Made by a program: the position numbers and the translations under genes
The notes under the pieces: generated by a model
The model's database searches: none
The model's input: the letters and a program-made list of their open reading frames with translations, nothing else
Told to the model about the DNA's origin: nothing
Shown here: piece after piece, positions 12,840-29,556 of the stretch
Layout of the letters: every line of letters begins with the position of its first letter
How positions within the stretch are numbered: position 1 is the stretch's first letter
Assembly: GCA_934772445.1 (NCBI GenBank)
Contig: CAKVMJ010000002.1
Location: 9,475 to 73,474 of the forward strand
DNA length: 64,000 nucleotides
DNA from: an uncultured Clostridia bacterium
GTDB taxonomy: Bacteria; Bacillota; Clostridia; Christensenellales; UBA1242
Direction of reading: 5' to 3'

Positions 12840-13280
12840 ATGAAAATTTTAGATTATAATTTTGAAGTTCGATGTAATGGCTATACTAAGTTCTTTTCTA
12901 AGAAACAAGAAAAAAGCCAACCTAAAAAAGTTTGGCTTGCGCTTATATGCGGAGTTTTTATTGGATTTATAAATGGATTCTTTGGTGGAGGGGGAGGTAT
13001 GATATGCGTACCTGTTTTAACATCTATCTTAAAACTTCCAGAAAAGGTGGCTCATGCAACCACTATTTTAATAATCCTACCAATGTGTGTTACTAGTCTA
13101 ATAATATACTTTTTAAATTCCGAATTAAATTTAGCACTCTCTTGGCCAATCTTAGTTGGATTTGTGGTGGGTGGTGTTATAGGTGCAATAATACTTAAAA
13201 AAATTAATAATGATATTTTAAAGTTAATTTTCGATTTTATCATCTTGAGTGCTGGTATTCTTAGTTTGATTAAGTTTTGA
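12840..13280 (+). CDS. half-size TSUP (TauE/SafE) family membrane protein, C-half-like
   Basis: 4 TM segments with a GGGGGMICVPVL motif. It ends right after the last TM helix. The start is uncertain: ATG at 12840, while the track starts at 12744. Confidence 0.6.
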   Translation: MKILDYNFEVRCNGYTKFFSKKQEKSQPKKVWLALICGVFIGFINGFFGGGGGMICVPVLTSILKLPEKVAHATTILIILPMCVTSLIIYFLNSELNLALSWPILVGFVVGGVIGAIILKKINNDILKLIFDFIILSAGILSLIKF

Positions 13281-13664
13281 TTTAACTTTTTGATAGATAA
13301 ACACAATAATTTGATAAACACCAATCATAATTAAAAATATGCCAAAATATAACTTTAAACTTTTGTTCGAAATAGAATTTGCAAGCATTGCACTTAAAAA
13401 AGATGTAATTGCACCTGTAATTACAATTGGTATGCCTATTTTTAAGTTTACTAATTTGTTTTTAAAATGAATAATTAGCGAAACAACTGCCATTGGTAAG
13501 AATGCAAGCAGGTTAATACCTTGAGCAGTTTTTTGAGCGAACTCGAATATAATAGTTAAAACTGGAATTAAAAAAGTACCTCCGCCCATTCCCATTCCAG
13601 CGATTATTCCGCTAATTGTTCCAGCAATAATATAAAATAAAATTTCCATAATAAAAATAAGCAA
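13224..13664 (-). CDS. half-size TSUP (TauE/SafE) family membrane protein, N-half-like
   Basis: 4 TM segments with a GMGMGGGTFLIPVL motif. It is convergent with the previous gene and overlaps its 3' end by 57 nt. An ATG at 13649 is an alternative start. Confidence 0.6.
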   Translation of the reverse strand: MLIFIMEILFYIIAGTISGIIAGMGMGGGTFLIPVLTIIFEFAQKTAQGINLLAFLPMAVVSLIIHFKNKLVNLKIGIPIVITGAITSFLSAMLANSISNKSLKLYFGIFLIMIGVYQIIVFIYQKVKSKLNQTKNTSTQDDKIEN

Positions 13665-13731
13665 AATTAATCTTTTGCTTATTTATTTTTTACTAAATTA
13701 AAAGTTTTTATACAATAATTATATCCCTAAA

Positions 13732-16164
13732 TTAAGCCTTTTTTCTGTTTTTCATTTTAATATAGAAAATAAGCAAGAATATCCCGCTAACTAAAGCAAT
13801 TGAGCTTATAATTATAGCAGTTAATTGACTAGAATTAATACCATTTAATCTTATAAATTTAGTTTCAACCCAGCCAACTTGTTCCACTTGGTTTTCATCA
13901 TAATAAGTGATATAAGTTAATGTTTTTGTGCTATCTAATTTATCAACATAAATTCTATATTCGTGAGGTAAGGTTGTTTTAATATTATTCTCATCAATAG
14001 AGTTGAATCTATAAATATTAACTGTGTTATCTTTATCATAAGCATTTATTTTGGCATTTGATTCTTTTAGGTTTACCACATCTTCTTCATTAAAGAAAAC
14101 ATCAGCTGAATTAATATAACCATAACAATTTTCTAAATAAACGATAAAGAAATTGTTGCCAGCGAAAGAGATAGGGTATTTAGAATAAATTGTTTTATAA
14201 CTATCTATTTCAAGAGTTTCTAAAACTTCAACATTAGATGAATTTAAACCTGATGGTTTTGCAAAAACATAAGTTTTAGTGTTTGCAGTTTTAATACTAG
14301 TTGGTCTTTCAATATAATTAAAATCAACATTGGTATATAATCTTATTGCACAAATTGCGTTATCAAATGCATAAATAATTCCGCTAGTTGGGTTGATAGA
14401 AATATCGTAAAAACTGCTAAAATCTGCCTTTGTTTCGGATTTTATTGTAAAATTATTATTAAGATATTTTATTTTAGAAATTGTGTTATCAGATAGAGCA
14501 TAGATGTTATCAAATTCATCAACTGCTATGCTTCTAATATTGGAAATTAATGTTGTTTTAGCTTCTAATCCGCCAAATTCGGAAAGAATATATAAACCGT
14601 TTGATGAATAGAAAATAATCTTATTTGAATTTGGTAAAACATCAATTAAGCAGTTTTCATCAAACCCTAAGATTGAATTAAAGTTTAACACAACGGCAGA
14701 AGGGGAGGAAGCACTGCAAGTAAGCAAGCCTTTAGCGGTTAAAATAATTAAAGTTTCGTTAATTTTTTTCAAACCTAGAATTGTTGGGATAGATGTTAAA
14801 GTTGAATCAATTGAATATTGGGTTATTGCAAGAGTTTCATTTGTTTCAAGGTTGTATTTAATAACTGCACTTGTTGTTGAAGAGATTTTTACGCTATAAA
14901 AAAGTATATTTTCAGTAAATTGTACAGGGTGGTTAGCGTTTACAGATAATGGATAAGTGTTTTTTAAAACATTGGCTTTATTATTTGAAATTAATTGAAT
15001 ACGGTTGTTTAATGGGTCGCCAACAAGTATTTTGTCGTTTGAACTAACACTTAATGTGGCATTCTTGTTAAATCTTCCCAAACTTCCACAAACAGAAGCT
15101 ATTAAAACATTTTCGCCAATCATCTCAGCACCATTATCACTTATATTTAATGCAAAAGATTGAATACTTTTAGTTCCGTTATCCGCAACAAGCATTTTAC
15201 CATTAAAGAATTTTATATCAATAGGAGAGTTAATTCTTCCGCATTTAAAGCCATTATTATCTTCTAAGGTTTCATCGCCTTTTTTCCAGTTTGTTTGGTC
15301 AATACTCTCAGTTAGTGGTATATCTGTTTTTACTAAGCAAACATTTTTAGTTGAAATAGCAAGCACATAGTCATTTAGATTTTTTTGTGCAACTATTAAA
15401 ACTGATGCGTTTGATGGATAAAATTTACTTGGATTATTAATTACAATCGTTGGAAGAACAGAAATTGTGAATAATTTATTTTGATTTGTTTCATCACCAG
15501 CCACTGCATAGATTTTGTTTTCGTTTGAATTTGCGATATTTGAGAACTTGGTGATAGGGCTAGTTGAACTAGTATTATCGTTTATATCTTTAATTGTGAT
15601 AATTCCAGAACTCTTAATTTGTATGCAATTTTCATTAGTGATAAGGTAGTAGTATTTCAGAAAAGTTGGATTTAGAGTTGAAATAAAGATTTGAGAAGAA
15701 TTATCATTTGCAGTTTCGATAATGGAGATTTTATCAAATAAATTAATATTGAAATTATTATTTGTTTCATCTTTTATGTTGATTTTCTCAAAATTGGATA
15801 AAGAATAAACATTTAAAATACTTCCGCTAGATTTTTTATCGCCAATAAATAAAAACTTATTTGAAAGTTTTAGATATTCAATATTTTCAAAATGTTCTAA
15901 TAATTTTTCAGATTTATTTCTTCTATTTAAAATTTCAATGCTAGAGGAATTAGTTGTGTAAACAATAAAACTGCTATTAACATCAAAGCAGGTTATGTTT
16001 GTTAAATCTTTTGAAAACTCACTATCCTCAATATAAAGTTCGCTTAAAATTGAATCATCTGCTATTTCATCGGCAAAAACATCTACTTGGTTAAAACCAC
16101 TAAATAAAGCCGAAATTAATATACAAATTGTTATAAAATATAAATAAATTTTCCTATTTTTCAT
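13732..16164 (-). CDS. surface protein with a signal peptide, NHL/beta-propeller-like repeats, two SH3b-like domains and a C-terminal TM anchor
   Basis: An N-terminal signal sequence. NHL-like strings (KMLVADNGTKSIQSF, LVGDPLNNRIQLI). Two SH3b-like modules near the C-terminus, then LTAIIISSIALVSGIFLLIFYI and a basic tail. Confidence 0.6.
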   Translation of the reverse strand: MKNRKIYLYFITICILISALFSGFNQVDVFADEIADDSILSELYIEDSEFSKDLTNITCFDVNSSFIVYTTNSSSIEILNRRNKSEKLLEHFENIEYLKLSNKFLFIGDKKSSGSILNVYSLSNFEKINIKDETNNNFNINLFDKISIIETANDNSSQIFISTLNPTFLKYYYLITNENCIQIKSSGIITIKDINDNTSSTSPITKFSNIANSNENKIYAVAGDETNQNKLFTISVLPTIVINNPSKFYPSNASVLIVAQKNLNDYVLAISTKNVCLVKTDIPLTESIDQTNWKKGDETLEDNNGFKCGRINSPIDIKFFNGKMLVADNGTKSIQSFALNISDNGAEMIGENVLIASVCGSLGRFNKNATLSVSSNDKILVGDPLNNRIQLISNNKANVLKNTYPLSVNANHPVQFTENILFYSVKISSTTSAVIKYNLETNETLAITQYSIDSTLTSIPTILGLKKINETLIILTAKGLLTCSASSPSAVVLNFNSILGFDENCLIDVLPNSNKIIFYSSNGLYILSEFGGLEAKTTLISNIRSIAVDEFDNIYALSDNTISKIKYLNNNFTIKSETKADFSSFYDISINPTSGIIYAFDNAICAIRLYTNVDFNYIERPTSIKTANTKTYVFAKPSGLNSSNVEVLETLEIDSYKTIYSKYPISFAGNNFFIVYLENCYGYINSADVFFNEEDVVNLKESNAKINAYDKDNTVNIYRFNSIDENNIKTTLPHEYRIYVDKLDSTKTLTYITYYDENQVEQVGWVETKFIRLNGINSSQLTAIIISSIALVSGIFLLIFYIKMKNRKKA

Positions 16165-16334
16165 TTGATTTATCCTATATATATTTTTATCTATAATATA
16201 TAATATAACATTATTTAATCAATAACAAACAAAATTAATTACTTTAAAGAATTTAATGTACAACTTCATAAAATTTTTGTAATGCACCAAATTTGATGCT
16301 GGTAAAAAATGGAAAAATTTGTTGACATTGACTA

Positions 16335-16364
16335 TTGATTTTTTTTATTTTAACATATTATAAT
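16335..16364 (+). promoter_or_regulatory. sigma-A-type promoter of the sigma-like regulator gene
   Basis: TTGATT (16335-16340), an 18-nt spacer, then TATAAT (16359-16364). Confidence 0.5.
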
Positions 16365-16378
16365 AGAACAAATGTTCT
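16365..16378. promoter_or_regulatory. LexA operator (Cheo/SOS box)
   Basis: AGAACAAATGTTCT, a perfect GAAC-N4-GTTC core. It matches about 12 of 14 positions of CGAACRNRYGTTYC and abuts the -10 hexamer. Confidence 0.6.
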
Positions 16379-16450
16379 AAGATATTGCAAAAAATTTTAG
16401 AAAATTTGAAACAAAATAGCAAATTGAAATTAATTAAAAGGAGTTGAATT

Positions 16451-16963
16451 ATGAAATTAGAAGATTGGAGTAAGATTATTTTATCTTATTACAGTTATTT
16501 GGAGCAATCTGTGAAAGCGATAGATAAATTTGTTTTAGATAAATGCGTTTATACATCATACTTTGATTGTGGATTAAATTTTGACATTGAGAAAAGATTT
16601 AACAAAGTTATGGAACTAATAGATAAAAAAAGGCGTTTTATAAATCTAAAAGTAATAATCGAAAAAGCTCTCACGCAAATTAATGAAAAATATAGGAAAA
16701 TATTAGTTTTGTTTTATATAGACCAATTATCTTGTGAAGAAATTGCAAGATTAATGAATTTGAATATAAGAACATTTTTTAGATATAAAAATCAGGCCAT
16801 AACATCGTTTTCAAAGGCATTATCAAGAGAGGGGTTTAATATTGAATATTTCAATGAAAACTATGCTTCAGATAAATGGTTATTTATGGTTAATACATAT
16901 CACACAAAATGCGGAAATATGAAAAGAATTAATGAATATAAGTTAATAAGTTCGTTTTTATAA
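16451..16963 (+). CDS. sigma-70 region-4-like (ArpU/Xpf/DUF1492-type) transcriptional regulator
   Basis: 170 aa. The string KYRKILVLFYIDQLSCEEIARLMNLNIRTFFRYKNQAITSF is a sigma region-4 HTH pattern. Its size and position resemble phage late-gene activators. Confidence 0.6.
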   Translation: MKLEDWSKIILSYYSYLEQSVKAIDKFVLDKCVYTSYFDCGLNFDIEKRFNKVMELIDKKRRFINLKVIIEKALTQINEKYRKILVLFYIDQLSCEEIARLMNLNIRTFFRYKNQAITSFSKALSREGFNIEYFNENYASDKWLFMVNTYHTKCGNMKRINEYKLISSFL

Positions 16964-17719
16964 AAGAGAATCGTAATCAATTTTATCGTTTGAGCGAACC
17001 ACTTTTGCTTTAACTTTTGGCTTTGATGGTGGTTTGAATAATAAAACCATTACAGCTATTACTGGTAACATTATAACACTAATTAAAATTATGCAAGTGG
17101 AATTAGATAAGGGATTTACAGTTAGAAAACCATCGTTGTTTGAAAAACTTACAGTTTCTGTGTTTACGGAAATTGCAGGCAGATTATTTAAGTAACCATT
17201 ATAAATATAGCCATAAACTCCCATATAGTCCACAAGATACCAAATATTGCCAAAGTAGTCCATAACATAGTCGCCGTAAATTTTGCCAATATAGTTAATA
17301 TCGCTGGAGTTGGCTGGAACCGTTAGTAAAACAGTGGCGTTAGATGATGGTGCGGACCTTAAATTGCATTTAAAATTGTTTGTTTTGAGTTTTGCAATAG
17401 GATATGGATTTTTAGGTATTGATGAACAAATTTTAACATTTGTTTTTTCAACATATCCATTAACTCCGTTATAATTAACATTATAGAAGTTGTCGTTTTC
17501 AAAAACGCAGATTTTAACGAAATATGTGGGTTCTAGGTAACAAACGATATTTGAAATATCTAAGTTTGAATTAGCGGTTTTATAGAGTATGCAAGATTTT
17601 TGAATTTGTGCAAATTCATTATAGGCAAAATATATTGAGTTTGGAAAAGTGCTAAGTAAAAGAATAAATAATATATTTATAAGCACGATAAAATTTAATT
17701 TATTTGTGTTAATTTTCAT
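16958..17719 (-). CDS. signal peptide, two SH3b-like domains and a C-terminal TM anchor
   Basis: It has the same C-terminal architecture as the 810-aa protein (SH3b-SH3b-TM-basic tail). It is convergent with the regulator gene and overlaps it by 6 nt. Confidence 0.55.
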   Translation of the reverse strand: MKINTNKLNFIVLINILFILLLSTFPNSIYFAYNEFAQIQKSCILYKTANSNLDISNIVCYLEPTYFVKICVFENDNFYNVNYNGVNGYVEKTNVKICSSIPKNPYPIAKLKTNNFKCNLRSAPSSNATVLLTVPANSSDINYIGKIYGDYVMDYFGNIWYLVDYMGVYGYIYNGYLNNLPAISVNTETVSFSNNDGFLTVNPLSNSTCIILISVIMLPVIAVMVLLFKPPSKPKVKAKVVRSNDKIDYDSLL

Positions 17720-17823
17720 CTTATTTATATTCTAAATAATAGAGGATTAAATCACAATTTGAAAGTTGAAAGAATTTATGTTTTTTTGACTTTTTTTGTA
17801 CTTTTCATTTAGGGGGTGAGATA

Positions 17824-19263
17824 TTGAAAGATGCGGAAATTATAGAAAAATTAAACCGAATAGAAAAAGAACTTTTATTACATTCTTCAAATAAGCTGGA
17901 AAATTATAATAAAGGTGAAAAGGTTCATAAAAAGCAATTAGAGTTCCATAAAAATATGCATAGAAATAGGTGGGTTTTTGGTGGAAACAGAAGTGGTAAA
18001 ACTGAATGTGGAGCGGTGGAAACAGTTTGGCTTGCTAGGGGCATACACCCATTTAAACCTAATAAAAAAGATGTTTGTGGTTGGGTGGTTTCTTTATCAA
18101 CTCAAGTTCAAAGAGATGTTGCACAAGCAAAAATCTTTAGCTACTTAAATAAGGATTGGATACAAGATATAAAGATGAGTACGGGCAGAAAGGATTCGCC
18201 AGAGTTTGGCGTGGTTGATACCATTATAATAAAGAATATTTTTGGAGGATTATCTAAAATTGGATTTAAAACTTGTGATCAAGGTAGAGAAAAATTTCAG
18301 GGAACTAGTTTGGATTTTGTTTGGTTTGATGAAGAACCACCATTAGATATTTATCTGGAATGTAGAATGAGAGTTTTGGATAAGTGTGGTGAGATATTTG
18401 GTACAATGACACCTTTAAAAGGATTAAGTTGGGTTTATAACTATATCTATTTAAATGAATTTAACGATGAAGATATTTGGTATATACAAATGGAATGGGC
18501 AGATAATCCGTATCTAAATTATGAAGAGATAGAGAAATATACAAAAGCTTTTAGCGAGAGTGAATTAAATTCAAGAAGATATGGATTGTTTGAAAACTTT
18601 GGAGGCATTGTTTATAACGAATTTGATCCAAATGTTCATATAATCGAGCCATTTGAAATTCCGAAAGAATGGCAGGATAACTTATCTATAGACCCAGGGC
18701 TTCATAATCCGCTTAGTTGTCATTGGTATGCAGTTGATTACGATGAAAATATTTATGTGGTGGCGGAACATTATGAGGCAAATAAAGATGTGGCATACCA
18801 TTCGAAAAAGATAAAAGAAATATCTAAGCGTTTGAATTGGAAAACCACAAAAAATGGCTACATACAAGCATTAATAGATAGTGCTGCAACTCAAAAAACT
18901 TTAGCAAGCGAAAAGAATGTTGTTGATTTGTTTTATGATAATGGCATTGTGGTAAACACAAAAGTTTGTAAGGATTTATATAGCGGAATTAATAGAGTGA
19001 AAAGTTATTTAAGAAATGGTGAGAGCAAGCCAAAACTTTTTATATTTAAAAATTGTGTGAATTTAATTCGGGAGATAAAAGGATATTTTTGGGGTAATGA
19101 TGATGTGCCAATAAAAAAAGATGACCACGCATTAGATGAACTTAGATATTATATAATGTCCCGACCTGCGCCTCCAGTTTTAAAACAAGAAAAAAGTGAG
19201 ATTGTGAGAAATAAAGAAATGCTTTATCGTAAATTGAAATATCGAAGAATGGGGTACTATTAA
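17824..19263 (+). CDS. phage terminase large subunit
   Basis: Walker A GGNRSGKT and Walker B LDFVWFDEEP. A C-terminal RNaseH-like nuclease with IDPGLHNP, LIDSAA and DDHALDELRY. TTG start after a GGGGGTGA RBS. Confidence 0.9.
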   Translation: MKDAEIIEKLNRIEKELLLHSSNKLENYNKGEKVHKKQLEFHKNMHRNRWVFGGNRSGKTECGAVETVWLARGIHPFKPNKKDVCGWVVSLSTQVQRDVAQAKIFSYLNKDWIQDIKMSTGRKDSPEFGVVDTIIIKNIFGGLSKIGFKTCDQGREKFQGTSLDFVWFDEEPPLDIYLECRMRVLDKCGEIFGTMTPLKGLSWVYNYIYLNEFNDEDIWYIQMEWADNPYLNYEEIEKYTKAFSESELNSRRYGLFENFGGIVYNEFDPNVHIIEPFEIPKEWQDNLSIDPGLHNPLSCHWYAVDYDENIYVVAEHYEANKDVAYHSKKIKEISKRLNWKTTKNGYIQALIDSAATQKTLASEKNVVDLFYDNGIVVNTKVCKDLYSGINRVKSYLRNGESKPKLFIFKNCVNLIREIKGYFWGNDDVPIKKDDHALDELRYYIMSRPAPPVLKQEKSEIVRNKEMLYRKLKYRRMGYY

Positions 19264-19562
19264 TGTTTAATGAAAAGCAGAATAATGAAGAATTGAAAAA
19301 AGCGTTAGTTAAAAAAGCGTTAGGATATAGTACGGAAGAAGTGGTGGAAGAATATTCTTTAGTGGATAACGATTTAGTTCTAATTAAAAAAAAGAAAAGC
19401 ATAAAGGATTATCCTCCAGACTTGCCAGCTATTAAATATTTGCTTGATGAAGAGTGTGAGGAAGATGAATATAAAAGTTATACAAAAGAAGAATTAGAAG
19501 AAGAAAAACAACGCTTACTTAGAATGTTAAGAGATAATAAAGGAGAAGAAGATGGAGATTAA
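19263..19562 (+). CDS. small acidic protein, possibly related to a terminase small subunit
   Basis: 99 aa. The string KKALGYSTEEV...KKKKSIKDYPPDLPAIKYLL resembles the K..PPD..A..F/YLL pattern of some Firmicutes phage small terminases. The ATG overlaps the TerL stop. Confidence 0.35.
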   Translation: MFNEKQNNEELKKALVKKALGYSTEEVVEEYSLVDNDLVLIKKKKSIKDYPPDLPAIKYLLDEECEEDEYKSYTKEELEEEKQRLLRMLRDNKGEEDGD

Positions 19563-19794
19563 AGAAGCAAAATTTAAAGTTAAATGCGATGTTGCTGGTT
19601 GCAGAAATTATGGAATGGTATATATAGAGAATAAAGGTTTTTTATTAGATAAAAGCATCTATTTATGTGAGGATTGCGTTAGGCAAATTTATGAATGGTA
19701 TGCAAAAAGAATAACTCCACCAAGCATATCTAATATGCTTAATAAAAAGGGTTTAATTGATGATAAACCTAAAAAGAAAAAGAGAGGTGAATAG
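19552..19794 (+). CDS. four-Cys zinc-ribbon protein with a basic tail
   Basis: 80 aa. It has C-x4-C, then about 27 residues, then C-x2-C (KCDVAGC...LCEDC) and ends in KPKKKKRGE. Confidence 0.5.
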   Translation: MEIKEAKFKVKCDVAGCRNYGMVYIENKGFLLDKSIYLCEDCVRQIYEWYAKRITPPSISNMLNKKGLIDDKPKKKKRGE

Positions 19795-19796
19795 AA

Positions 19797-21725
19797 TTGA
19801 AAAGAAGAGTAAAAGATGTGGAAAAAATGCGAGAAGAAAATAAAAGTATTTTTGAAGAGCAACAACTGGTAAACGAAATTTTGGAAGATTTAAAAAATAG
19901 GCAAATTGCTCGCAGACAATTAGAAACTAATTGGCAATTAAACATCAATTTCTTTATTGGTAATCAATATTGCGGAATAAACACCAATGGAGATATTGTT
20001 GATGGCTATAAACAATATTTTTGGGAAGAAAGAGAAGTTTTTAATCATATTGCACCTTTAGTAGAGCTTAGGCTTAGTAAACTTGCTAATGTTAGACCAT
20101 CTTTAACCGTTTTGCCGTTTTCTGATGAAATGGAAGATATAGCGAGTGCGAAAGTAAGCAAAAAGATTTTAAAGTCTGTTTGCCACGAGATAGGTTTTTC
20201 AAAACTTTTGCAAGAAGCCACAAGGTGGAGCGAAATTTGCGGTACTGTTTTTTATAAAATTGGTTGGAATGATAAAAAAGGCAGATTTATAGCAAAAAAC
20301 GAAACTGGTAATAAGATTTATGAAGGCGATGTGGAAGTAAGCGTGGTAAGTCCGTTTGAAATTTATCCAGATTCAAATACCTATTCTTCCATTGAAGAAT
20401 GTGAGAGTATTATATATGCCCGTTCATTTTCAAGTAAAGAAGTTAAAAATAAATGGGGAGTTGAAGTTGAGGGTAAAACGATAAATGTTTTCTCATTAGA
20501 TAATATAACTTCTGTTGGCGGACTTGGATATAATGCTACAAGTTCAGCTCTAGCAAAAACCACAAAACTTGATCAAGTTATAGTTTTGGAAAAATACGAA
20601 AGTCCATCTATAGAATATCCGAATGGCAGACTTATTATAATAGCTGGAGATAAACTTGTTTATATGGGCGAACTACCATATATAAATAAAGAAAATGGTG
20701 AGAGAGGTTTTCCGTTTGTTAGGCAATGTGCAATACCAATTCCTAATTCATTTTTTGGGATTAGCACAATTGATAGATGTATTCCAATTCAAAGGGCATA
20801 TAACGCAATAAAGAATAGAAAACACGAATTTTTAAATAGACTAACAATGGGAATTTTAGCAGTGGAAGATGGTTCTGTAGATACGGAAGATTTAGAAGAG
20901 GAGGGCTTATCTCCGGGTAAAGTTTTAATATATAGGCAAGGTGCGAATGCACCAAAACTTTTATCCACTGGCTCTGTTCCGCTAGATTTTCAATATGAAG
21001 AAAATCAGCTTTTAAGCGAGTTTTTAAATGTGAGTGGTGTAAATGATTTATTAAATGCAAAAACGATTAGTACAAATATATCTGGTGTGGCGTTACAATT
21101 ATTGATTGAGCAAGACGAGGTAAGGCTGTTATCTAGTGCGGAAGAAATACGAAACGCAGCAAAAGAAACGGCAAAACAAATGCTAAGACTATTTAAACAA
21201 TTCGCACTTTTACCACACACTTCAAGAATTGTTGGTGAAGATGGCGGAATTGAAATGTTTTATTGGCAAAATTCGGATATACAAGCTGATGATATTGTAT
21301 TCGAAACAGAAAACGAGATAAATGAAACAGTTGCACAAAAACGCAGTATGATATTGGATATTTTAAAAACAGGCTTGCTTCACGATGAAGATGGTAAATT
21401 ATCTAATTCGGTTAGAACTAAGTTGCTTGAGCAATTGGGTATGGGACTTAGTGTTTTAGATAACGAACAAGATTTAAAATCGCTTCAAACAAAACAAGCC
21501 ACAAAAGAAAATTTAAGACTTATTGATGAAGATATTATAGAGCTTCCAAAAGAAATTGATGAACACGATATTCATATTTCAAGTCATATTGGCTTTATGC
21601 TTTCAAAAGAGTTTGATAAAGCTTCTAAGAAAAATCCAAAATTAGAAAAGAAACTACTCGAACATATCAAAGACCATAAAAGATACTTAAATTTAACAAA
21701 AAAAGCAGAAGAAATGCAAAATTAA
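19797..21725 (+). CDS. phage portal protein
   Basis: 642 aa, directly after the terminase genes and before the scaffold and capsid genes. TTG start after a GAGGTGA RBS. The call rests on size and position. Confidence 0.7.
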   Translation: MKRRVKDVEKMREENKSIFEEQQLVNEILEDLKNRQIARRQLETNWQLNINFFIGNQYCGINTNGDIVDGYKQYFWEEREVFNHIAPLVELRLSKLANVRPSLTVLPFSDEMEDIASAKVSKKILKSVCHEIGFSKLLQEATRWSEICGTVFYKIGWNDKKGRFIAKNETGNKIYEGDVEVSVVSPFEIYPDSNTYSSIEECESIIYARSFSSKEVKNKWGVEVEGKTINVFSLDNITSVGGLGYNATSSALAKTTKLDQVIVLEKYESPSIEYPNGRLIIIAGDKLVYMGELPYINKENGERGFPFVRQCAIPIPNSFFGISTIDRCIPIQRAYNAIKNRKHEFLNRLTMGILAVEDGSVDTEDLEEEGLSPGKVLIYRQGANAPKLLSTGSVPLDFQYEENQLLSEFLNVSGVNDLLNAKTISTNISGVALQLLIEQDEVRLLSSAEEIRNAAKETAKQMLRLFKQFALLPHTSRIVGEDGGIEMFYWQNSDIQADDIVFETENEINETVAQKRSMILDILKTGLLHDEDGKLSNSVRTKLLEQLGMGLSVLDNEQDLKSLQTKQATKENLRLIDEDIIELPKEIDEHDIHISSHIGFMLSKEFDKASKKNPKLEKKLLEHIKDHKRYLNLTKKAEEMQN

Positions 21726-21736
21726 AGGAGAAATAA

Positions 21737-22378
21737 ATGGATAAATTGAATAATATTGGAGAACAACCTATAAATCAAGATGTGAGCAATGTTGCGGAGG
21801 CAAGTAAGGAGATTAGTGCGGACACACAAGATTTTGATGGCTCTCCAATTGGGAAATTTAAAGATGTCAAAAGTTTGTTTAGTGCCTATGCTGAACTTGA
21901 AAAGGAGTTTACAAAAAAGTGTCAGCGAGTAAGCGAACTGGAAAAGCAGAAAACCGATAATGCAGAAGCAAATGCACCGGTATTTATGCAAAATAATTGG
22001 CAAAATGAGATTGAAAGTTTTTTAAAATCTCATAACGAGGCACAAATATTTGCAAAAGACATCGCAAAAGAGTTGATGGAAAATAAAGATTTAGCAAATA
22101 ATCCAAATGCTTTAGATTTGGCTTACGCTAAAGTGCTTTCCAAAAATTATAAATCTGCAGATGAACTTTTGGGCGATGAAACTTTTGTAAATGAAAAAAT
22201 ATTAAATAATGAAAAAATTAAGAGCCAAATTATAAACGATTATTTAAAAGGTGTTGTACAAAATTCAACCCCACCATTAATTTTAGATAATAAAGGCTCT
22301 AGTTTGGGCTTTGCATTAGAGCAAACTCCAAAAAACTTAGAAGAGGCAAAAAGAATGGTGGAAAAGATGTTTAAGTAA
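21737..22378 (+). CDS. phage scaffolding protein
   Basis: 213 aa, acidic and helical. The string FKDVKSLFSAYAELEKEFTKK is typical of capsid scaffolds. It lies between the portal and capsid genes. Confidence 0.55.
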   Translation: MDKLNNIGEQPINQDVSNVAEASKEISADTQDFDGSPIGKFKDVKSLFSAYAELEKEFTKKCQRVSELEKQKTDNAEANAPVFMQNNWQNEIESFLKSHNEAQIFAKDIAKELMENKDLANNPNALDLAYAKVLSKNYKSADELLGDETFVNEKILNNEKIKSQIINDYLKGVVQNSTPPLILDNKGSSLGFALEQTPKNLEEAKRMVEKMFK

Positions 22379-22398
22379 TTTGGCAAAAGGAGAAAATT

Positions 22399-23709
22399 TT
22401 GATTACTTTAACAACCGCTGAAAAAGCATTAAAAACTGTTTATTTAGGTGCAGTTGCAAATCATTTAAACCTAAAAGCAAACCCATTTTTAGCAAAAATG
22501 AATCAATCCACTTGTAATATCATTGGAAACGAAATTGTTAAAGTTGCTCCTTATGGAGTTAATGGTGGATTTGGTGCATTGCTAGAAGATAGTGCACTTC
22601 CAGAAGCAGTAAGTACTAGTTTTGAAAAGTTTAGAGAAACTTTAAAAAATTTATATGGTAAGATTGAGATTTCAGATAAAGCAGTAAGAGCAAGTCAAAG
22701 TAGTTCGGGTGCGTTTGTAAACTTGCTTAATAGCGAAATGGAATCATTAATCAAAACTTGTTCCTTCCATTTAGCAAGAATGTTGTTTGGTGATGGAACT
22801 GGTAACCTTGGAAATGTTGCAGAACATTATCCTCAAATTGATGCTTATGCCACTTATGATGATGTAAGAAATTTTGTTGAAGGTATGATTGTAGATTTTG
22901 AAGATACAACTAATGCTTCAAAAACCTATGCTCAAAATGTGGTTACATCTGTTGATAGAAGTTTGAATAGAGTTTATTTCAAAAATTCTTTCACCACTGC
23001 ATTAAATACAAATTGTATTACATATCTTCCAAATTCAAAAAATAATGAATTAACAGGTCTTGGTAAGATATTTAAAAAAGATTCATCATTATATGGCGTG
23101 GATAGAAGTCAAAATAAATGGCTAAACCCAAAAACTGTTACTAATGCTGGACAAATTACAGATATTATAATCCAAAAAATGATTGATGATTTAGAAGATT
23201 ACTATGATAGCGATATAGACTATATCACTTGCTCTAGTGATGTTAAAAGATATTATCAAGAATACTTGCAATCATTCAGAAGAAACATTGATTATATGGA
23301 ATTAAATGGCGGATATAAAGCAATGTCTTATGGTGGTATTCCAATTGTTTCAGATAGATTTGCACCAAAAGGTAGTATGTATATCTTAAATTCAAAAGAT
23401 TTCAATCTATATCAATTATGTGATTGGACTTGGCTTGAAGGTGATGATGGTAGAATTTTAAAACAAAATCCGGGTTACGCAACTTATAGCGCAACATTAG
23501 TTAAGTATGCCGAAATGATGTGTGATAGACCTGCAGCACAAGGATTGATTACTGGTATTACATCTGGTAGTACAGATTATGCAAAACAAATTGCAACTAA
23601 TACTAGCACAATCGCCACTAAAACTGGCAATATTGCCACATCTACTGGTAAATTAGCTCAAGATTATGCCACTGTTAATGCCACTGCTTTAACAACTAAT
23701 GGTGAATAA
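22399..23709 (+). CDS. phage major capsid protein
   Basis: 436 aa, following the scaffold gene. The N-terminal pattern (LKTVYLGAVANHLNLKANPFLAKM...ISDKAVRAS) is capsid-like. The C-terminus carries an IAT-repeat tail. Confidence 0.65.
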   Translation: MITLTTAEKALKTVYLGAVANHLNLKANPFLAKMNQSTCNIIGNEIVKVAPYGVNGGFGALLEDSALPEAVSTSFEKFRETLKNLYGKIEISDKAVRASQSSSGAFVNLLNSEMESLIKTCSFHLARMLFGDGTGNLGNVAEHYPQIDAYATYDDVRNFVEGMIVDFEDTTNASKTYAQNVVTSVDRSLNRVYFKNSFTTALNTNCITYLPNSKNNELTGLGKIFKKDSSLYGVDRSQNKWLNPKTVTNAGQITDIIIQKMIDDLEDYYDSDIDYITCSSDVKRYYQEYLQSFRRNIDYMELNGGYKAMSYGGIPIVSDRFAPKGSMYILNSKDFNLYQLCDWTWLEGDDGRILKQNPGYATYSATLVKYAEMMCDRPAAQGLITGITSGSTDYAKQIATNTSTIATKTGNIATSTGKLAQDYATVNATALTTNGE

Positions 23710-23739
23710 TATAAAAAGTTTAAATTCAGGGGGAGAGTT

Positions 23740-24120
23740 ATGAGGTTAATAAAAATAGATAATGATGTTTTTGATATTTCTAAAAGAATTAAAGAAATAG
23801 ATAAAGATTATTATATTGTTTATAATTTAAAAACAAATAAATTTGAAGTTCATAATTCTTCCCAGAATTTGAACTCCTATGCATTAACTTGTCCGTATGA
23901 AAAGTTAGATAAACGGCTTTTGGATTACACTATGAAAACTAGGATTTGTAATTCAGATAAATTATTAGATGAAATTGATAACCATAATAGAAAAATAGAA
24001 AAAGAAATTGAAGAGAAAAGAAAAGATGAGAGTGGTATTATTTTTAAAGAAATTTATAAGTATGCAAACTTAAGCAAAAACTTTGATGAGAATAAAGCCT
24101 ATAAAAATAAATGGTTGTAA
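23740..24120 (+). CDS. hypothetical phage-module protein
   Basis: 126-aa intact ORF with an RBS (GGGGGAG), in the structural operon. Confidence 0.5.
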   Translation: MRLIKIDNDVFDISKRIKEIDKDYYIVYNLKTNKFEVHNSSQNLNSYALTCPYEKLDKRLLDYTMKTRICNSDKLLDEIDNHNRKIEKEIEEKRKDESGIIFKEIYKYANLSKNFDENKAYKNKWL

Positions 24121-24129
24121 GGAGAAGTT

Positions 24130-24699
24130 ATGGAAGTTAAAAAAATTTTAAAAAATGTTGCTATATATTTGCAGTTAACAGATGTTTACGATTTTTTAGT
24201 TAATAACAAATCAGCCACACTTGATTTGATGACAGAGGTGGATTTGCTGGTTTCTTGCGTAAACTTTGTTAACAATTTGATTGCAACAGATTATATAAAA
24301 CTTGTTAAAACGAAAGAACTAACAGTTAGTTCTAATTATGAAATTAAATTTGAAAATATTTCAACAGAAGAAATGCTAGGAGTTTTATCTATAAAAACTA
24401 TGAGTGGAGATAAAATTCCTTTTGTTTTAACTAACACTGGAGTGGTTGTAAATTATAGTGGAAAGGTTAAAATTAAATATGCTTATTTTCCTAATGAAGT
24501 GGAGTTAACGGGAAGTGTTAATGATTATAAAACAAAAATTAATGAAAGAATTTTTGCTTACGGTGTTGCTTCAGAATACTTATTTATTAAAGGAAATATT
24601 GATGATGCATCTATGTGGGATACTAGATTTAAGCGAGCTTTATTAAATCTAACAAGACCAATAAGCTCTATAAAAATGCCACTTGAAAAAATGATTTGA
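24130..24699 (+). CDS. hypothetical phage-module protein (head-completion or adaptor-sized)
   Basis: 189 aa with an RBS (AAGGAGAAG). Its position after the capsid gene matches head-closure proteins. Confidence 0.5.
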   Translation: MEVKKILKNVAIYLQLTDVYDFLVNNKSATLDLMTEVDLLVSCVNFVNNLIATDYIKLVKTKELTVSSNYEIKFENISTEEMLGVLSIKTMSGDKIPFVLTNTGVVVNYSGKVKIKYAYFPNEVELTGSVNDYKTKINERIFAYGVASEYLFIKGNIDDASMWDTRFKRALLNLTRPISSIKMPLEKMI

Positions 24700-24710
24700 G
24701 GGGGGGTGTT

Positions 24711-26213
24711 ATGTTTTATAATAATAACTTAGGATTAAAAAATATTACATATAAAAAATATAATTTAACATCTTTTGCAAATGGTATAAACCCAAATATT
24801 GATGAACAATTATTGCCTCTCACAACTGCTGTTACCACATATAATTTAAACTTTAATAATGGTGCATTAAAAACTGGTATGGGTGTTAAACCATTAAGTA
24901 TATCTTATAGTTTTGAAAATAAAAATTTAAAGAAAACTTTGAATAAAATTTCGGGTGTAGATTTCCTTGGAATGTGGGAATATAGTAGGTGGAATTCTGC
25001 AATGAATAGGTTTGAAAAATATCTTTTGGCGTATGGTAATGATGGGTATATGTATCAAGCATATTTATATTTTGATTATACAAATTTTATAAAATTAACT
25101 GCACTTCATTTTGATTCAATGCCTAATGTTGTGAGCTATTATTTGAATGGATTAGATGTTGCTTTAATATCAACCAACACAAATGGAATGTGGGTTTGGT
25201 CACCTGAGAAAACTCCATATAAAGTGAGTAACGCACCTAAAATTACGAGTATGTGCTTGCATTATGAAAGATTATTTGCAACCATTTCTGGAGATAATAG
25301 AACGATATGGTTTAGTGATGATTTAGATCCAACAAATTGGAATGTATCTCTCTCAGAGGGTGGTTTTATTTCTTTATATGATGAACGAGGCGGTGCAAAT
25401 AAAATAGTAAGTTTTAAAGACCATTTATATGTTTTTAGAGAGTTTGGAATATCAAGAATAACAGCTTATGCTAATCAAGAGAATTTTTGCGTAGCACATC
25501 TTTTTACCAGCAGTGAAAGAGTTTATGACAAAACTATAGTAATTTGTGGCAATAATATATTATTTCTTGCCAACGATGGGATATATTCATTTGATGGAAG
25601 TAGTACCATAAAATTGAATTTAAAACTAGAAAAATTATTAAAAAATATAAATAATGAAAATGCAGTTGGTGCATATTTTAATGGTAAGTATTATCTTGCA
25701 TTAAAATTAAATTATGGTGATGATAGAATTATTAATTGTGAATCTGAAGATGATTATGTTAATAACGCAATGATAGAATTAGATTTAAAAACAGGTAATG
25801 TTAATTTTATGAGGGGGATAGATATTAGAAATTTAAGCCCTGTGGTAACAGAACTTGATAGTGCTTTAATTTGTCTTATAAAATTAGCTGATGAAATTTC
25901 TATAACTCAATATTGTGATGATTGCGGTAAGTATATTGCTAATAACACAAATAAAGGTTGGGTATCTCCTAAAACAAGTTTTGGTTATCCTTTAAAACAA
26001 AAACTAATCAAATCTATAACGCTTGTAACTAAATATGATGTTGATATAATTTTAAATCTTGATGGCAGAAAAACCACATTCAAATTAAAGGGAAAAGAAC
26101 TTCCTCAAACTATCTATCCAAACTTAAAAGGTTACTTATTTGGTATTGAGTTTTTCACGACAACTGCTGAAGCTTATATAACCAATTCAAGCATTGTGGT
26201 GGGGATATTATGA
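24711..26213 (+). CDS. hypothetical phage structural protein (about 500 aa, beta-repeat-like)
   Basis: I prefer the ATG at 24711, after a GAGGGGGG RBS. Recurrent strand-like motifs (WFSDDLDPTNW, DHLYVFREFGISRI, ILFLANDGIYSFDG). Size and position are analogous to P22 gp10. Confidence 0.5.
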   Translation: MFYNNNLGLKNITYKKYNLTSFANGINPNIDEQLLPLTTAVTTYNLNFNNGALKTGMGVKPLSISYSFENKNLKKTLNKISGVDFLGMWEYSRWNSAMNRFEKYLLAYGNDGYMYQAYLYFDYTNFIKLTALHFDSMPNVVSYYLNGLDVALISTNTNGMWVWSPEKTPYKVSNAPKITSMCLHYERLFATISGDNRTIWFSDDLDPTNWNVSLSEGGFISLYDERGGANKIVSFKDHLYVFREFGISRITAYANQENFCVAHLFTSSERVYDKTIVICGNNILFLANDGIYSFDGSSTIKLNLKLEKLLKNINNENAVGAYFNGKYYLALKLNYGDDRIINCESEDDYVNNAMIELDLKTGNVNFMRGIDIRNLSPVVTELDSALICLIKLADEISITQYCDDCGKYIANNTNKGWVSPKTSFGYPLKQKLIKSITLVTKYDVDIILNLDGRKTTFKLKGKELPQTIYPNLKGYLFGIEFFTTTAEAYITNSSIVVGIL

Positions 26214-27379
26214 TAAATGAAGAAATGTTTGTTTTGCAATCTCAGATAAACGAACTAAAGAAAAATTACGAAGAAGTTTCTTCATATAATAAGAGCATTG
26301 AGAAATTTAATTTTATATTAAAGCCGTTAGAAACTCAGTCTGTAAAATCTTTAAATTTTAAATGCTTTGAAAAGTATATAGTTTTAAAATTTAGAGGAAA
26401 GCAGAATTGTGAAAATTCTTTTTATATAAATTTTAATTCTGTAACAATTTTTAAAACAAGCGAAAAAGTTTTTGCAAAAGAATTTATCTTAGAAGTAAAT
26501 AAGGTAAATTCAATTGAAATTTTTTATAAAGGTAATTCTGATGAAACTATAAAAACTTTTATGGAAATTTATGGTTCTATAGAGTTGGAAAATTTTAAAG
26601 GAATGAACTTAAGTAAAATTAATTCAAAATATTATTTGATAAATCAAAATGAAAAAATGTTAGAGAACTTTGATTCTTTAGATATGCTTGAAATTTTTGA
26701 TGGTGGTTTCGAAAATTTAGAAGGATATATTGCTTGTTGTGAGAAATATAATATATCTGAATTTAAAGCAGATGACTTACTTTTGCTTTTAAAAGAAGAT
26801 TCTAAATATTATGTTCGGAGTTGCTTAAATTCAAATAGAAATTTGGTTTTGGAAAATGGCGAGGCTTATGGAATGTTTCCAATTTTAGATGAAACATATA
26901 AATATGGATTGTTTTGCAAAGTTGGTAATGATTATAAAATTAAATATTTTAAATTGGATAACACCACAGATAAAGAAGATGTTTTAAATTTGAATTTAAA
27001 GTTTGATATTTTTAAAGCGGGTGGATTTTGTTATATTGAGAGCGGTATATCACATTATGGATTTTGGTTTATAGATGTTAATAATGATGCGTATTTGGTT
27101 TTTTCAAAGTTAAGTGCGGTTGGAGAAACTAACGAATTTTATGAGCCAATCTATGTTGGAAAATCTAACCACATTAATATATATTTATATAATAGTAATA
27201 TAGTAAGTTTTAATAGTATAAATAATTTTGTGGTTTATAGTGAGTACTCGCTCTCAATATTATCAAGCGTTGCATCGCTTACAAAAACTCAATTAAAAAA
27301 ATATAAGAATGTGGAATATGGATTTGTTGTTGGAGAAAATAAAATGCTTTATTCAAATGGGTGCTTAACATATTTATAA
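26210..27379 (+). CDS. hypothetical phage-module protein
   Basis: 389 aa. Its start overlaps the previous stop (ATGA). It has an N-terminal coiled coil. Confidence 0.5.
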   Translation: MINEEMFVLQSQINELKKNYEEVSSYNKSIEKFNFILKPLETQSVKSLNFKCFEKYIVLKFRGKQNCENSFYINFNSVTIFKTSEKVFAKEFILEVNKVNSIEIFYKGNSDETIKTFMEIYGSIELENFKGMNLSKINSKYYLINQNEKMLENFDSLDMLEIFDGGFENLEGYIACCEKYNISEFKADDLLLLLKEDSKYYVRSCLNSNRNLVLENGEAYGMFPILDETYKYGLFCKVGNDYKIKYFKLDNTTDKEDVLNLNLKFDIFKAGGFCYIESGISHYGFWFIDVNNDAYLVFSKLSAVGETNEFYEPIYVGKSNHINIYLYNSNIVSFNSINNFVVYSEYSLSILSSVASLTKTQLKKYKNVEYGFVVGENKMLYSNGCLTYL

Positions 27380-27390
27380 GAGGAGAAACA

Positions 27391-28320
27391 ATGAATAAAT
27401 ATATAGATAAGGAAACTTCAAAGAAAGTTGATGCAATCACAAATGATGCTTTTGCAAACGATCTTGTTGAAAAGATTAAAGATTTTAATTCAAAGTTTGA
27501 TACAAGTGTTGGAAATGTTCCTAAAAACGAGCTTGATTTAGATAGGCTTGAAGATATTGTTATAGATGATAATAAAATTGCAAAACAAGTTGAGGAAGAA
27601 TTATTTGATTATAAGAAATCTGGAATAGATAAAATCAATAATCAAACTAAATTAAAAGAAGAAGAGTTAAACTTAAATAAAGAGAGTTTAAAAAATTCAT
27701 ATAATAGTTCAAAAGAAAAAATAGAAGAGAATTATGCAAATGCAAGGCAAAGAACGAGTGATGAGGCATTGAAAAGGGGTATTAGTAGAAGTAGTATTGT
27801 TATAAACCAGCTAGATGCTTTTAATAGAGAGGAATTGGATTTATATAATAAGTTAGATGAAGAACTAACATCAAAGATAAATCAAGTAGATTTCGAATTA
27901 AATGCTTTGCAAACTCAGCAAGATTTAGCACTTAGCGAGTTTGATATTGCTTATGCAGTTAAATTAAATTCAAAGATAAATTCTTTAAAACAAGGATTAA
28001 TAGATAAACAAAACGAGGTTTTGAAATATAATAATCAAATTGCAGAAAAGGAAGCCCAATATAAATTGAAATACGAACAATTAGAACAAGATTTAAGAAA
28101 CGAGGCTTGGGATAAAGAAAAGGATTTAATAAATCTTGCAAGTAAGTATGGAGTAAAAGCAGTTGAAAAATATAAACAAACTAAAATATATAATATGGTA
28201 GATGAATATTTGGCATCACTTTCAAAAGAAGAAGCGAAAAAGATTTTAGAAAATAATGAAGAGGTTAGAAACTATTTAACTTCCACAAACTTAAATGCTC
28301 TGTTAAATAAATATAAGTAA
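27391..28320 (+). CDS. coiled-coil phage-module protein
   Basis: 309 aa from the ATG at 27391, after an AGAGGAGAAA RBS. Long heptad-like K/E/L/N-rich stretches. Confidence 0.5.
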   Translation: MNKYIDKETSKKVDAITNDAFANDLVEKIKDFNSKFDTSVGNVPKNELDLDRLEDIVIDDNKIAKQVEEELFDYKKSGIDKINNQTKLKEEELNLNKESLKNSYNSSKEKIEENYANARQRTSDEALKRGISRSSIVINQLDAFNREELDLYNKLDEELTSKINQVDFELNALQTQQDLALSEFDIAYAVKLNSKINSLKQGLIDKQNEVLKYNNQIAEKEAQYKLKYEQLEQDLRNEAWDKEKDLINLASKYGVKAVEKYKQTKIYNMVDEYLASLSKEEAKKILENNEEVRNYLTSTNLNALLNKYK

Positions 28321-28335
28321 ATTTAAGGGGGAAAT

Positions 28336-28581
28336 ATGTGGGAAGAAATATTTAATCTCGCAATAAATAATGGATTATGGTCAGTTTTGTTTTTAATATT
28401 GTTGGTTTATGTTTTAAAAGATAGTAAGGCAAGAGAATTAAAATACCAGCAAACTATCACCACATTAGCAGATAGCTTAGAGATAATTCAAGATGTTAAG
28501 GAAGATGTACAAGAAATAAAAAGCAAGTTGTTAAATTCAGATTTGTCTAATCCTAAAAAGGAAGATAAAGATGAAAAATAA
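28336..28581 (+). CDS. BhlA/UviB-family holin-like peptide
   Basis: 81 aa. The string MWEEIFNLAINNGLWSVLFLILLVYVLKDSKARELKYQQTI matches the BhlA/UviB pattern: an N-terminal TM helix followed by YVLK..S..RE..Y. Confidence 0.65.
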   Translation: MWEEIFNLAINNGLWSVLFLILLVYVLKDSKARELKYQQTITTLADSLEIIQDVKEDVQEIKSKLLNSDLSNPKKEDKDEK

Positions 28582-28954
28582 CTTTTCTTCGTATGCATTT
28601 TGGGTTGCAGTTACTGGTGCTATAGTAGTTTTTTTGCAAAACTTAGGCAAAGTGGTTGGTTTCAACTTTAATTCTTCAGCATTTGAAAGCATTGTATTAT
28701 CTTTTTGCGGAATTTTGGTAGTTTTGGGCGTTTTAAACCAAAATAAAGATGAAAACTCAGATTTAAAAGAAGATGAACCAAATTTAAAGGATAGTTCGAA
28801 TGAAAATGAAGAATTATCTAAAGAAATAAAGGAAGAAAATGAGGAAAATATAGCCAAAACTAATAATGAAAACATAGAGAATAATGAAAATGATATAAAA
28901 AATGAAACAAGTGATGAGATTAATAAAATAGACCATAAAAACGAAAAAGACTAG
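28571..28954 (+). CDS. two-TM holin-like protein with a long acidic N/E/K tail
   Basis: 127 aa. Two hydrophobic helices in the first 55 aa, then a highly charged low-complexity tail. It overlaps the BhlA-like gene by 11 nt. Confidence 0.45.
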   Translation: MKNNFSSYAFWVAVTGAIVVFLQNLGKVVGFNFNSSAFESIVLSFCGILVVLGVLNQNKDENSDLKEDEPNLKDSSNENEELSKEIKEENEENIAKTNNENIENNENDIKNETSDEINKIDHKNEKD

Positions 28955-28975
28955 ATTAAATTCTAGTCTTTTTTG
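28947..28975 (+). terminator. rho-independent terminator closing the phage-like operon
   Basis: Stem aagactaga/tctagtctt overlapping the stop codon, followed by a T-run. Confidence 0.7.
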
Positions 28976-29266
28976 CTTTTTAGATAGATATATAACTAAA
29001 TCAAAACTGAAATTAAATCTTATGTGCAATTCTCGAATTATCTATGTAATTTAAAAAGGTATGCTTATATATTCTTAGGTATAGGTAGTAATAGAATAAA
29101 TAAATCTATTACACCATAAAATTCAATAAAATGGCTTTAAATTAGGTAATAAAGCAAAAAATATAATAATTTTTTTAATAAGTTAGATAAAAATATTATT
29201 AAGTTAAGAGAATTATGGCAAATTTTGTTTAATTTAAAAATTTAGATGTTTTTATATAAAATACAC

Positions 29267-29295
29267 TTGAAATTTATTTTATTTTATGATATACT
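29267..29295 (+). promoter_or_regulatory. sigma-A-type promoter upstream of the RNase J gene
   Basis: TTGAAA (29267-29272), a 17-nt spacer, then TATACT (29290-29295) with a TGn extended -10. It leaves a leader of about 255 nt. Confidence 0.5.
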
Positions 29296-29556
29296 CTCAT
29301 CAGATTTTTAAATGGTATGCTTTTGGGCAATCATTAATTGAATAAAGGATAATTAAAAAGTTTGAGATTTTGTGCTTTTCAAATTTTTTGGAAGATTATC
29401 GAGCTTAATTTTCTATTTTAGCTAGAAATTGGTTTTGTTTTATTTTGGTGATTATTTTGGATAATACAAAAGTTTTTAGCAATATTTAATAGAAATTAAT
29501 ATATTATTTAAAACATTTAAAAATAAATAAAAATATTTACATAAAGGGAGAAATAT

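Follow-up and report, generated by a model that had tools for sequence, protein, structure and literature searches.

Does the palindrome that abuts the promoter of a small sigma-like regulator in this uncultured Clostridia bacterium put a phage-type particle cluster under the control of host LexA, or has it arisen by chance in AT-rich intergenic DNA? The former was proposed in a sequence-only reading of the window, that is, of the whole stretch of 64,000 nucleotides analysed here. The regulator gene, which we term REG (16451-16963, plus strand), is preceded by a -35 hexamer TTGATT (16335-16340) and, after an 18-nt spacer, by a -10 hexamer TATAAT (16359-16364), both on the plus strand, both read directly from the sequence and both recovered in a promoter scan, where the TTGATT-18-TATAAT pair gave 10 of 12 matches. 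A ribosome binding site AAAGGAG (16437-16443, plus strand) is found 7 nt ahead of the REG ATG at 16451. The predicted LexA operator AGAACAAATGTTCT (16365-16378), a strandless 14-mer of the Cheo/DinR type recognised by its motif, matrix score and conservation, begins at the base right after the -10, and its GAAC-N4-GTTC core (16366-16377), a perfect palindrome, begins one base further on. Compared with the consensus CGAACRNRYGTTYC, 12 of the 14 positions match and the central AAAT fits RNRY, the outer bases being A and T where the consensus has C...C. The positions and the 18-nt spacing of the hexamers, the perfect core, the RNRY-fitting AAAT and the abutment of the 14-mer on TATAAT, all of which had been claimed previously, are in every coordinate borne out by the sequence. 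From the usual distance of about 7 nt, transcription of REG would be predicted to start near 16371, and the box spans roughly -6 to +8 of this predicted (not mapped) promoter, which is the only recognisable REG promoter that the promoter scan returned in this genome.

The claim that the eight fixed bases of the core are expected less than once per window is correct as a number (0.37 expected), but it does not hold as an argument against chance, since the 1.25-Mb genome contains eight perfect GAAC-N4-GTTC cores where 9.0 are expected. Counting of bare cores was therefore dropped as evidence. The window itself contains two, a number that is reached in 5 of 100 shuffles, and the second of these, GAACTTGCGTTC (63345-63356), has a spacer that does not fit RNRY, falls below the 12.4-bit matrix threshold and looks like a chance match. 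With the bare core thus at chance level, the significance of the REG site rests on an 11-base identity, on its top matrix score and on its conservation in relatives. The identity concerns the 11 bases GAACAAATGTT, which are common to the REG, lexA and recA boxes of this genome, the lexA promoter box being CGAACAAATGTTTG, located over a TTGACT -35, and the recA box being CGAACAAATGTTTC, located 6 nt downstream of TATAAT. Scoring was done with a matrix of the 12-mer core, for which the training set consisted of the lexA-promoter boxes of 16 other family genomes only; a 16-mer matrix with flanks had taken up the -35 of the lexA promoters and given recA too low a score, and the 12-mer was used instead. 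The REG box scores 18.3 bits, the highest value in the whole genome, against 17.0 bits each for recA and lexA, with which a single coding-region hit inside an ABC-transporter gene is tied, and the three top intergenic scores of the genome are those of REG, recA and lexA. No good LexA box was found in the uvrA and uvrB promoters of this genome. The comparison with the SOS genes suggested by the sequence-only reading places the REG site at least on a par with recA and lexA.

The genome (1.25 Mb, 29% G+C, 55 contigs, 77% complete) encodes a single full LexA orthologue of 207 aa, found by a genome profile search with 210.8 bits to TIGR00498 against a cut-off of 110.95, and its Ala-Gly cleavage site, the serine of its GESM motif and the lysine of its VKR motif align to the LexA structures of E. 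coli and T. maritima. The orthologue that any LexA interpretation presupposes is in other words present, with the cleavage site and the Ser/Lys dyad intact. The SOS regulon of this genome appears to be very small, with REG among its three clear members. Outside the window, at 50773-50788 of contig C4, a weaker Cheo-like site, TCAAACTTTTGTTCTA, is found between genes for a RecD2-like helicase and a SpoIIE-like protein, and it may constitute a fourth SOS target.

Conservation was assessed at several distances. At the locus of the nearest relative, the metagenome-assembled locus L009, whose REG is 87% identical, both promoter hexamers and the box are intact and the spacer and flanks have diverged; the TTGACA and TTGACT hexamers that neighbour TTGATT are furthermore mutated there. 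A family sample was composed of one genome per genus, and a box was called where the 400 nt upstream of REG contained a site scoring 12.4 bits or more. Counted in this way, and bearing in mind that related genomes are non-independent and that neither these nor the following box and lexA counts amount to a formal test, the box is found at REG in 20 of 24 genomes with lexA and in none of the five without lexA, and the 172 control windows taken from these loci contain no box. The four genomes that have lexA and no box include G332, which is the only other genome of the same genus sampled. Genus g2 has REG and no box in 11 genomes, nine of which are without lexA and two of which have low-scoring hits only, and in other families of the order the box is found in 9/10 genomes with canonical lexA. 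A TerL-anchored sample, which partly overlaps the family sample, has the box 97-325 nt ahead of REG in 29 of 59 loci, with 13 other hits in 595 kb, and when 50 of these genomes were checked for lexA, canonical meaning at least 180 bits, the box was present in 22 of 24 genomes with canonical lexA as opposed to 3 of 26 without. Exceptions are G345 and G357, which have a box of at least 12.4 bits despite no lexA match having been found, and G352, where such a box occurs and only a low-scoring LexA-like gene was found; G101, which has a perfect-core box by a mismatch criterion, was likewise counted against the link between box and lexA.

This pattern nonetheless calls for several separate joint losses of box and lexA. 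Box loss that follows lexA loss in this way, over dozens of genera, supports a regulatory link with a clarity that is unusual for uncultured bacteria, and the interpretation of the palindrome as a LexA site gains from it, the box being conserved at REG across family and order and, apart from the exceptions named, absent where lexA is absent. As regards lexA itself, 8 of 41 family genomes and 9 of the 11 genomes of genus g2, most of them more than 95% complete, yielded no canonical gene, and those lexA-less, small-genome Christensenellales that were examined all retain at least part of the particle cluster.

The notion that the palindrome AGAACAAATGTTCT is a product of chance in intergenic DNA rich in A+T, or that it serves the divergent gene for an 810-aa surface protein (13732-16164), draws on the chance rate of perfect cores genome-wide (8 vs 9 expected) and on the fact that the box, being palindromic, is strandless. 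It is however in poor agreement with the box being kept at REG in dozens of species where the upstream neighbour varies, and with the lack of a box in all 172 control windows; furthermore the -10 that the box abuts is on the REG strand, and some 200 nt separate the box from the start of the 810-aa gene, for which promoter-like sites of its own are seen at 16195-16228. We therefore consider this explanation very improbable and AGAACAAATGTTCT to be, with considerable confidence, a genuine LexA operator, to which LexA would be expected to bind.

It should also be asked whether the repressor would be host LexA, since relatives possess extra proteins of this kind. Two groups of additional LexA-like S24 repressors, with 135-172 bits, occur in other genomes of the order (L196-L213), and a mobile-element LexA-like or a cI-type repressor that recognises Cheo boxes could in principle use AGAACAAATGTTCT in place of LexA. 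The operators of these paralogues, which are located just after their own -10 and read ATCGTGGAA-N4-TTCCACGAT or AAAGAAC-N5-GTTCTTT, are however quite unlike the box, and of the 15 genomes that have paralogues only, just one carries a box at REG. As the genome studied here has one full LexA and the same motif in its lexA promoter, a repressor other than host LexA seems a most improbable user of the site. The idea that the low-scoring LexA-like genes are the true LexA of the box-less genomes was likewise rejected, their own operators being unrelated; these genes look like mobile-element repressors. Three of the paralogues (L207, L208 and L211) have a canonical Cheo-like box within their own promoter, and these would therefore be under host LexA themselves.

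The gene that LexA would thus control encodes a protein of 170 aa in which Pfam and the AlphaFold2 model point to a sigma-70 region-4 domain only. REG matches Sigma70_r4_2 (PF08281) with 36 bits (cut-off 25.7) and DUF1492 (PF07374) with 27.9 bits (cut-off 21.5), it remains below the cut-off of the ArpU model TIGR01637 with 19.7 bits, and it matches phage transcription-regulator PHROGs. The region-4 part of the AlphaFold2 model (mean pLDDT 77.3) superposes on ECF sigma4 domains within 1-2 Å, and a fold search found no sigma2, the two long N-terminal helices having no sigma2-like match and the whole-chain TM being about 0.35. When REG was tested as a complete sigma factor, the Pfam and NCBIfam matches were to region 4 only (residues 50-127) and below the family cut-offs. 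Since the matches are confined to region 4 and no sigma2 is found, REG is not a complete sigma factor, and the ECF-type alternative was rejected for lack of region 2. By its domains and its model, REG rather resembles the late activators LtrA and LtrB. The gene is monocistronic, and its 3' end overlaps a convergent gene by 6 nt.

This convergent gene (16958-17719, minus strand) encodes an SH3b-domain protein of 253 aa, assigned by Pfam SH3_3, and separates REG from the capsid operon. REG is found 860 nt before the terminase gene TerL with this one opposite-strand gene between, an order that is kept in relatives, where the SH3 gene has the same place and orientation in 17 of 20 regions and also in L009. 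The SH3b gene has no Shine-Dalgarno sequence, and a -10-like hexamer ends 8-10 nt before its ATG (17720-17760, minus strand), TAGAAT here and TAAAAT within a conserved ATTTTAA motif in relatives, which suggests that its mRNA is leaderless or near-leaderless.

The particle operon (17824-28954, plus strand; Pfam and PHROG matches, synteny) comprises 13 same-strand ORFs, all of them open. TerL (17824-19263, plus strand) is followed by a TerS-like 99-aa ORF, an 80-aa ORF, a portal protein of the P22/SU10 type, a scaffold-like protein and an SU10-like major capsid protein, and thereafter by five more structural ORFs (one with DUF7934), a BhlA holin and a second holin-like protein, the particle genes being podovirus-like. 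REG thereby heads a 12.5-kb terminase-portal-capsid-holin cluster, and RNase J follows it. When the ORFs of at least 50 aa in 13224-31224, apart from those nested inside longer ones, were scanned with Pfam, PHROG and NCBIfam, no integrase, replication or cI/Xre-type repressor domains were revealed, and no endolysin was recognised in the cluster by the domain scans. The lack of a cI/Xre-type repressor in the cluster sits well with the previous claim that no phage repressor is involved.

For synteny, regions of 20 kb from 20 relatives were compared with the window proteins by tblastn. In 18 of them the complete cluster is kept in the same order; these regions come from four families, four of the genomes belonging to three families of the order other than that of the present genome, and one further region runs out at a contig end after TerL. 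RNase J is the neighbour of the cluster in seven family members and, outside the family, in one genome. Identity to the window proteins across relatives is 58-69% for TerL (93% in L009), 44-64% for the portal, 41-55% for the capsid protein, 45-71% for RNase J and 28-41% for REG. A TerL-anchored scan of species representatives gave at least 595 carriers, the best 80 of which bear record titles with the names Christensenellales, Christensenella, CAG:314 and related candidate genera, and the closest phage TerL among 50,697 phage records is less than 30% identical. Synteny across Christensenellales, frequent adjacency to RNase J and the lack of a close phage relative together argue for a domesticated GTA-like element. 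Particle and lysis genes are indeed found without genes for integration, replication or lysogeny, and inheritance is vertical at a fixed site, as is characteristic of GTAs. Of the earlier designation as a phage-like late operon, the phage-type particle genes stand and the implied prophage does not: the cluster is by the above evidence a vertically inherited GTA- or PBSX-like element.

Individual loci show peculiarities of their own. Insertions of about 2.5-5.8 kb are located between TerL and the 99-aa ORF in L097, L102, L105, L109 and L111, two tandem capsid genes occur in L103 (genome G186), and in L107 (genome G337), where lexA is missing, only REG, SH3 and TerL are left before RNase J, the rest of the cluster being deleted.

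It could be argued from the remnant in G337, and from the fact that no endolysin is recognised in the cluster, that a prophage has decayed here, leaving an operator without function and an inactive cluster. This is however difficult to reconcile with the open state of all thirteen operon ORFs, with the preservation of synteny in 18 of 20 relative regions, often at the same chromosomal position and with a TerL that is 58-69% identical, or with the occurrence of TerL in at least 595 species representatives. Nor would a leftover explain why the presence of the box follows that of lexA, and GTA-like packaging of Christensenellaceae DNA has furthermore been seen in faecal particle preparations (PMC12946183). 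A decayed state is thus highly improbable.

Since an opposite-strand gene separates REG from TerL, the capsid operon needs a promoter of its own, which must be located in the intergenic region 17720-17823 (plus strand) and is the candidate for a REG-dependent one. No strong sigma-A promoter was found in it by promoter scan. A strand-specific TGTC element occurs 12-75 nt before TerL in 39 of 81 relative loci, compared to 8.9 ± 2.8 in shuffles and to 8 loci only in a reverse-complement control. This element is absent upstream of TerL in the present genome, which has TTTTGTAC at the corresponding place, and no -35-like partner at a fixed spacing from the element emerged. Repeats were likewise not found ahead of TerL in this genome, and cognate pairs of REG-upstream and TerL-upstream regions share no excess of 9-mers over non-cognate pairs (averages of 0.93 and 0.95, respectively). 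Enrichment of k-mers before TerL was dominated by the divergent SH3 start codon and by AT-richness, and of that approach only the TGTC count was kept. As we infer from its protein family, from where its gene is located and from the fact that the operon needs a promoter of its own, REG would activate the TerL promoter.

The promoter layouts of the relatives bear on the question of whether LexA acts alone. In most relatives, too, the box is located next to a TATAAT-like hexamer, at a distance of 1-2 nt, but the promoter in question is distal to REG. At many of these loci (L071-L095 and L116-L195) a palindrome TGACA-N5-6-TGTCA is observed 20-45 nt upstream of the boxed -10 and at a fixed distance from it; its left half is about 23 nt and its right half 12 nt from the -10, the one too far and the other too close to serve as a normal -35. 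This palindrome, which is absent from the REG promoter of the present genome, may be the operator of a second regulator. A second, near-consensus promoter TTGACt-17-TATAAT, preceded by TGTCAcA and two to three direct repeats TTTTGTACAAAA, is furthermore often observed between box and REG in relatives (e.g. L072, L076, L077 and L084). By a strict pattern this proximal promoter is found between box and REG in 13 of 29 boxed loci, and the pattern also occurs in 22 of 30 box-less loci. This promoter may serve REG under autoregulation or under separate repression. In a search of the relatives, no conserved small ORF was found between box and REG. Given the second promoter, LexA alone could not keep REG off in these relatives, and LexA is probably not the sole input at REG.

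The present genome and L009 have instead a single REG promoter with the box directly on it. This is the switch in its simplest form, and it suggests that the operator has been relocated or that two promoters have merged. Upstream of this promoter, 36 nt from the -35, there is an imperfect 16-bp palindrome GCACCAAATTTGATGC (16284-16299, no strand), which is part of a stretch of 22 nt without any difference between this genome and L009, the flanks having diverged. It is a possible candidate site for a second regulator and hints at a further input.

It can therefore be envisaged that LexA binds but is one of several inputs, a second regulator acting at the upstream palindromes or REG needing a further signal, and that DNA damage by itself would be insufficient to trigger particle production. 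The conserved palindrome-bearing block upstream of the -35, the palindrome 23 nt upstream of the -10 in most relatives and the second promoter with TTTTGTACAAAA repeats between their box and REG all speak in this direction, as does the fact that known GTAs integrate several signals (PMC9638019). In the present genome however only one REG promoter is recognisable and its start is covered by the box, and the cluster has no candidate gene for a second regulator, so that a decisive share of other inputs is here improbable, as is the insufficiency of DNA damage.

With LexA as the direct repressor of REG, the circuit may then be pictured as follows. In the undamaged cell a LexA dimer on the box would block RNA polymerase and no REG would be made. 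DNA damage would lead to RecA filaments and these to self-cleavage of LexA, and with LexA gone the sole recognisable REG promoter would fire. REG, as a region-4-only protein of the LtrA/LtrB type, would turn on the separate promoter ahead of TerL, whereupon the cell would produce short-tailed, DNA-packaging particles and holins, and the likely outcome would be that the damaged cell lyses and GTA-like particles are released. LexA binding, repression, SOS induction, the action of REG on the TerL promoter and the function of the particles are all predictions from sequence, and we regard the full chain from DNA damage to particle production as reasonably likely. We are more hesitant about the wider proposal that the LexA box serves the Christensenellales as the master switch of a GTA-like particle inherited vertically throughout the order, and that this switch has been rewired repeatedly, which may be regarded as tentative. 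In that event the rewiring might have taken the form of a move from a distal to a proximal promoter in this lineage and of the box being dropped wherever lexA was lost, a scheme that we put forward with equal reserve.

How the GTA-like particles that have recently been detected in gut Firmicutes are regulated is less well understood than any other aspect of them, and the two-step circuit from LexA over a region-4 activator to the capsid operon would provide a concrete trigger, such that mitomycin C or fluoroquinolones should induce the particles. It would also represent a short route to host control, with an SOS operator replacing the phage repressor at a late-activator promoter. If the box is indeed a master switch throughout the order, DNA damage in the gut, including that by SOS-inducing antibiotics, would result in lysis and in export of chromosomal DNA in capsids, and the Christensenellales would offer a natural series for studying how hosts take over the control of domesticated viruses. 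In full-text literature searches, no account was found of a LexA box at the activator of a particle cluster in Christensenellales. New here are the co-loss of box and lexA, the genome-wide ranking of the site, the comparison of the two promoters and the distinction between LexA and its paralogues.

How then does the arrangement relate to known systems? The Gram-positive LexA/DinR operator, the Cheo box CGAACRNRYGTTYC of recA and lexA promoters, has the same GAAC-N4-GTTC palindrome with an A/T-rich RNRY spacer and the same overlap with the core promoter, but unlike its usual targets the gene concerned here is not a repair gene but a phage-type activator of a domesticated particle cluster. A comparison with PBSX is likewise instructive. 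PBSX has an Xre repressor layer of its own and a contractile tail. In the present cluster a repressor encoded by the element is not seen, the LexA box is located on the promoter of the activator itself, and the particle genes are podovirus-like. The two are however alike in being chromosomal, non-replicating and phage-derived particle clusters, and the induction of PBSX by genotoxic stress, where a sigma-like positive factor acts after RecA-dependent induction (PMC9836290), corresponds to what is predicted here.

Late activators of the Ltr type (RinA, ArpU, LtrA/Sigma70_r4, LtrB/DUF1492 and LtrC; Quiles-Puchalt 2013, PMC3753634) provide the closest likeness for REG itself, which is likewise small and combines matches to Sigma70_r4 and DUF1492. 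Ltr proteins have been shown experimentally to activate packaging and lysis operons (PMC3753634), and since REG is likewise located just ahead of packaging genes, its expected role would by analogy be that of an on-switch for the packaging, head and lysis operon. In the Ltr phages it is the cI repressor of the phage that controls ltr (PMC3753634), a place that would here be taken directly by host LexA. The present locus furthermore differs from the Ltr phages in having the opposite-strand SH3 gene between REG and the operon and TerL as the first gene of the latter, and no 7-nt direct repeats such as would invite comparison were found ahead of TerL in this genome.

By its layout the operon can be likened to FpGTA of Faecalibacterium prausnitzii (Borodovich 2026, PMC12946183), likewise a podovirus-like TerS/TerL-portal-scaffold-capsid operon of about 10 kb without replication genes. 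The same paper reports GTA-like packaging for Christensenellaceae MAGs in faecal particles and describes no promoter, regulator or LexA control for FpGTA (PMC12946183).

Direct control by LexA has a counterpart in the Bacillus thuringiensis phage GIL01, where host LexA replaces a cI repressor (PMC4551915, PMC6182141). Host LexA at SOS boxes on the promoter of the element would then be the primary off-switch in both cases, as a prediction in ours. GIL01 is however a replicating temperate phage with the co-repressor gp7 and several boxes on an early promoter, whereas a single box, the promoter of a late-type activator and a non-mobile cluster are found here. RcGTA of Rhodobacter capsulatus finally shares with the present cluster the link between the SOS regulator and a GTA, LexA being required for its production (PMC9638019). 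In RcGTA this effect is indirect, through cckA/CtrA (PMC9638019), whereas in the Christensenellales cluster LexA is predicted to repress a dedicated activator directly.
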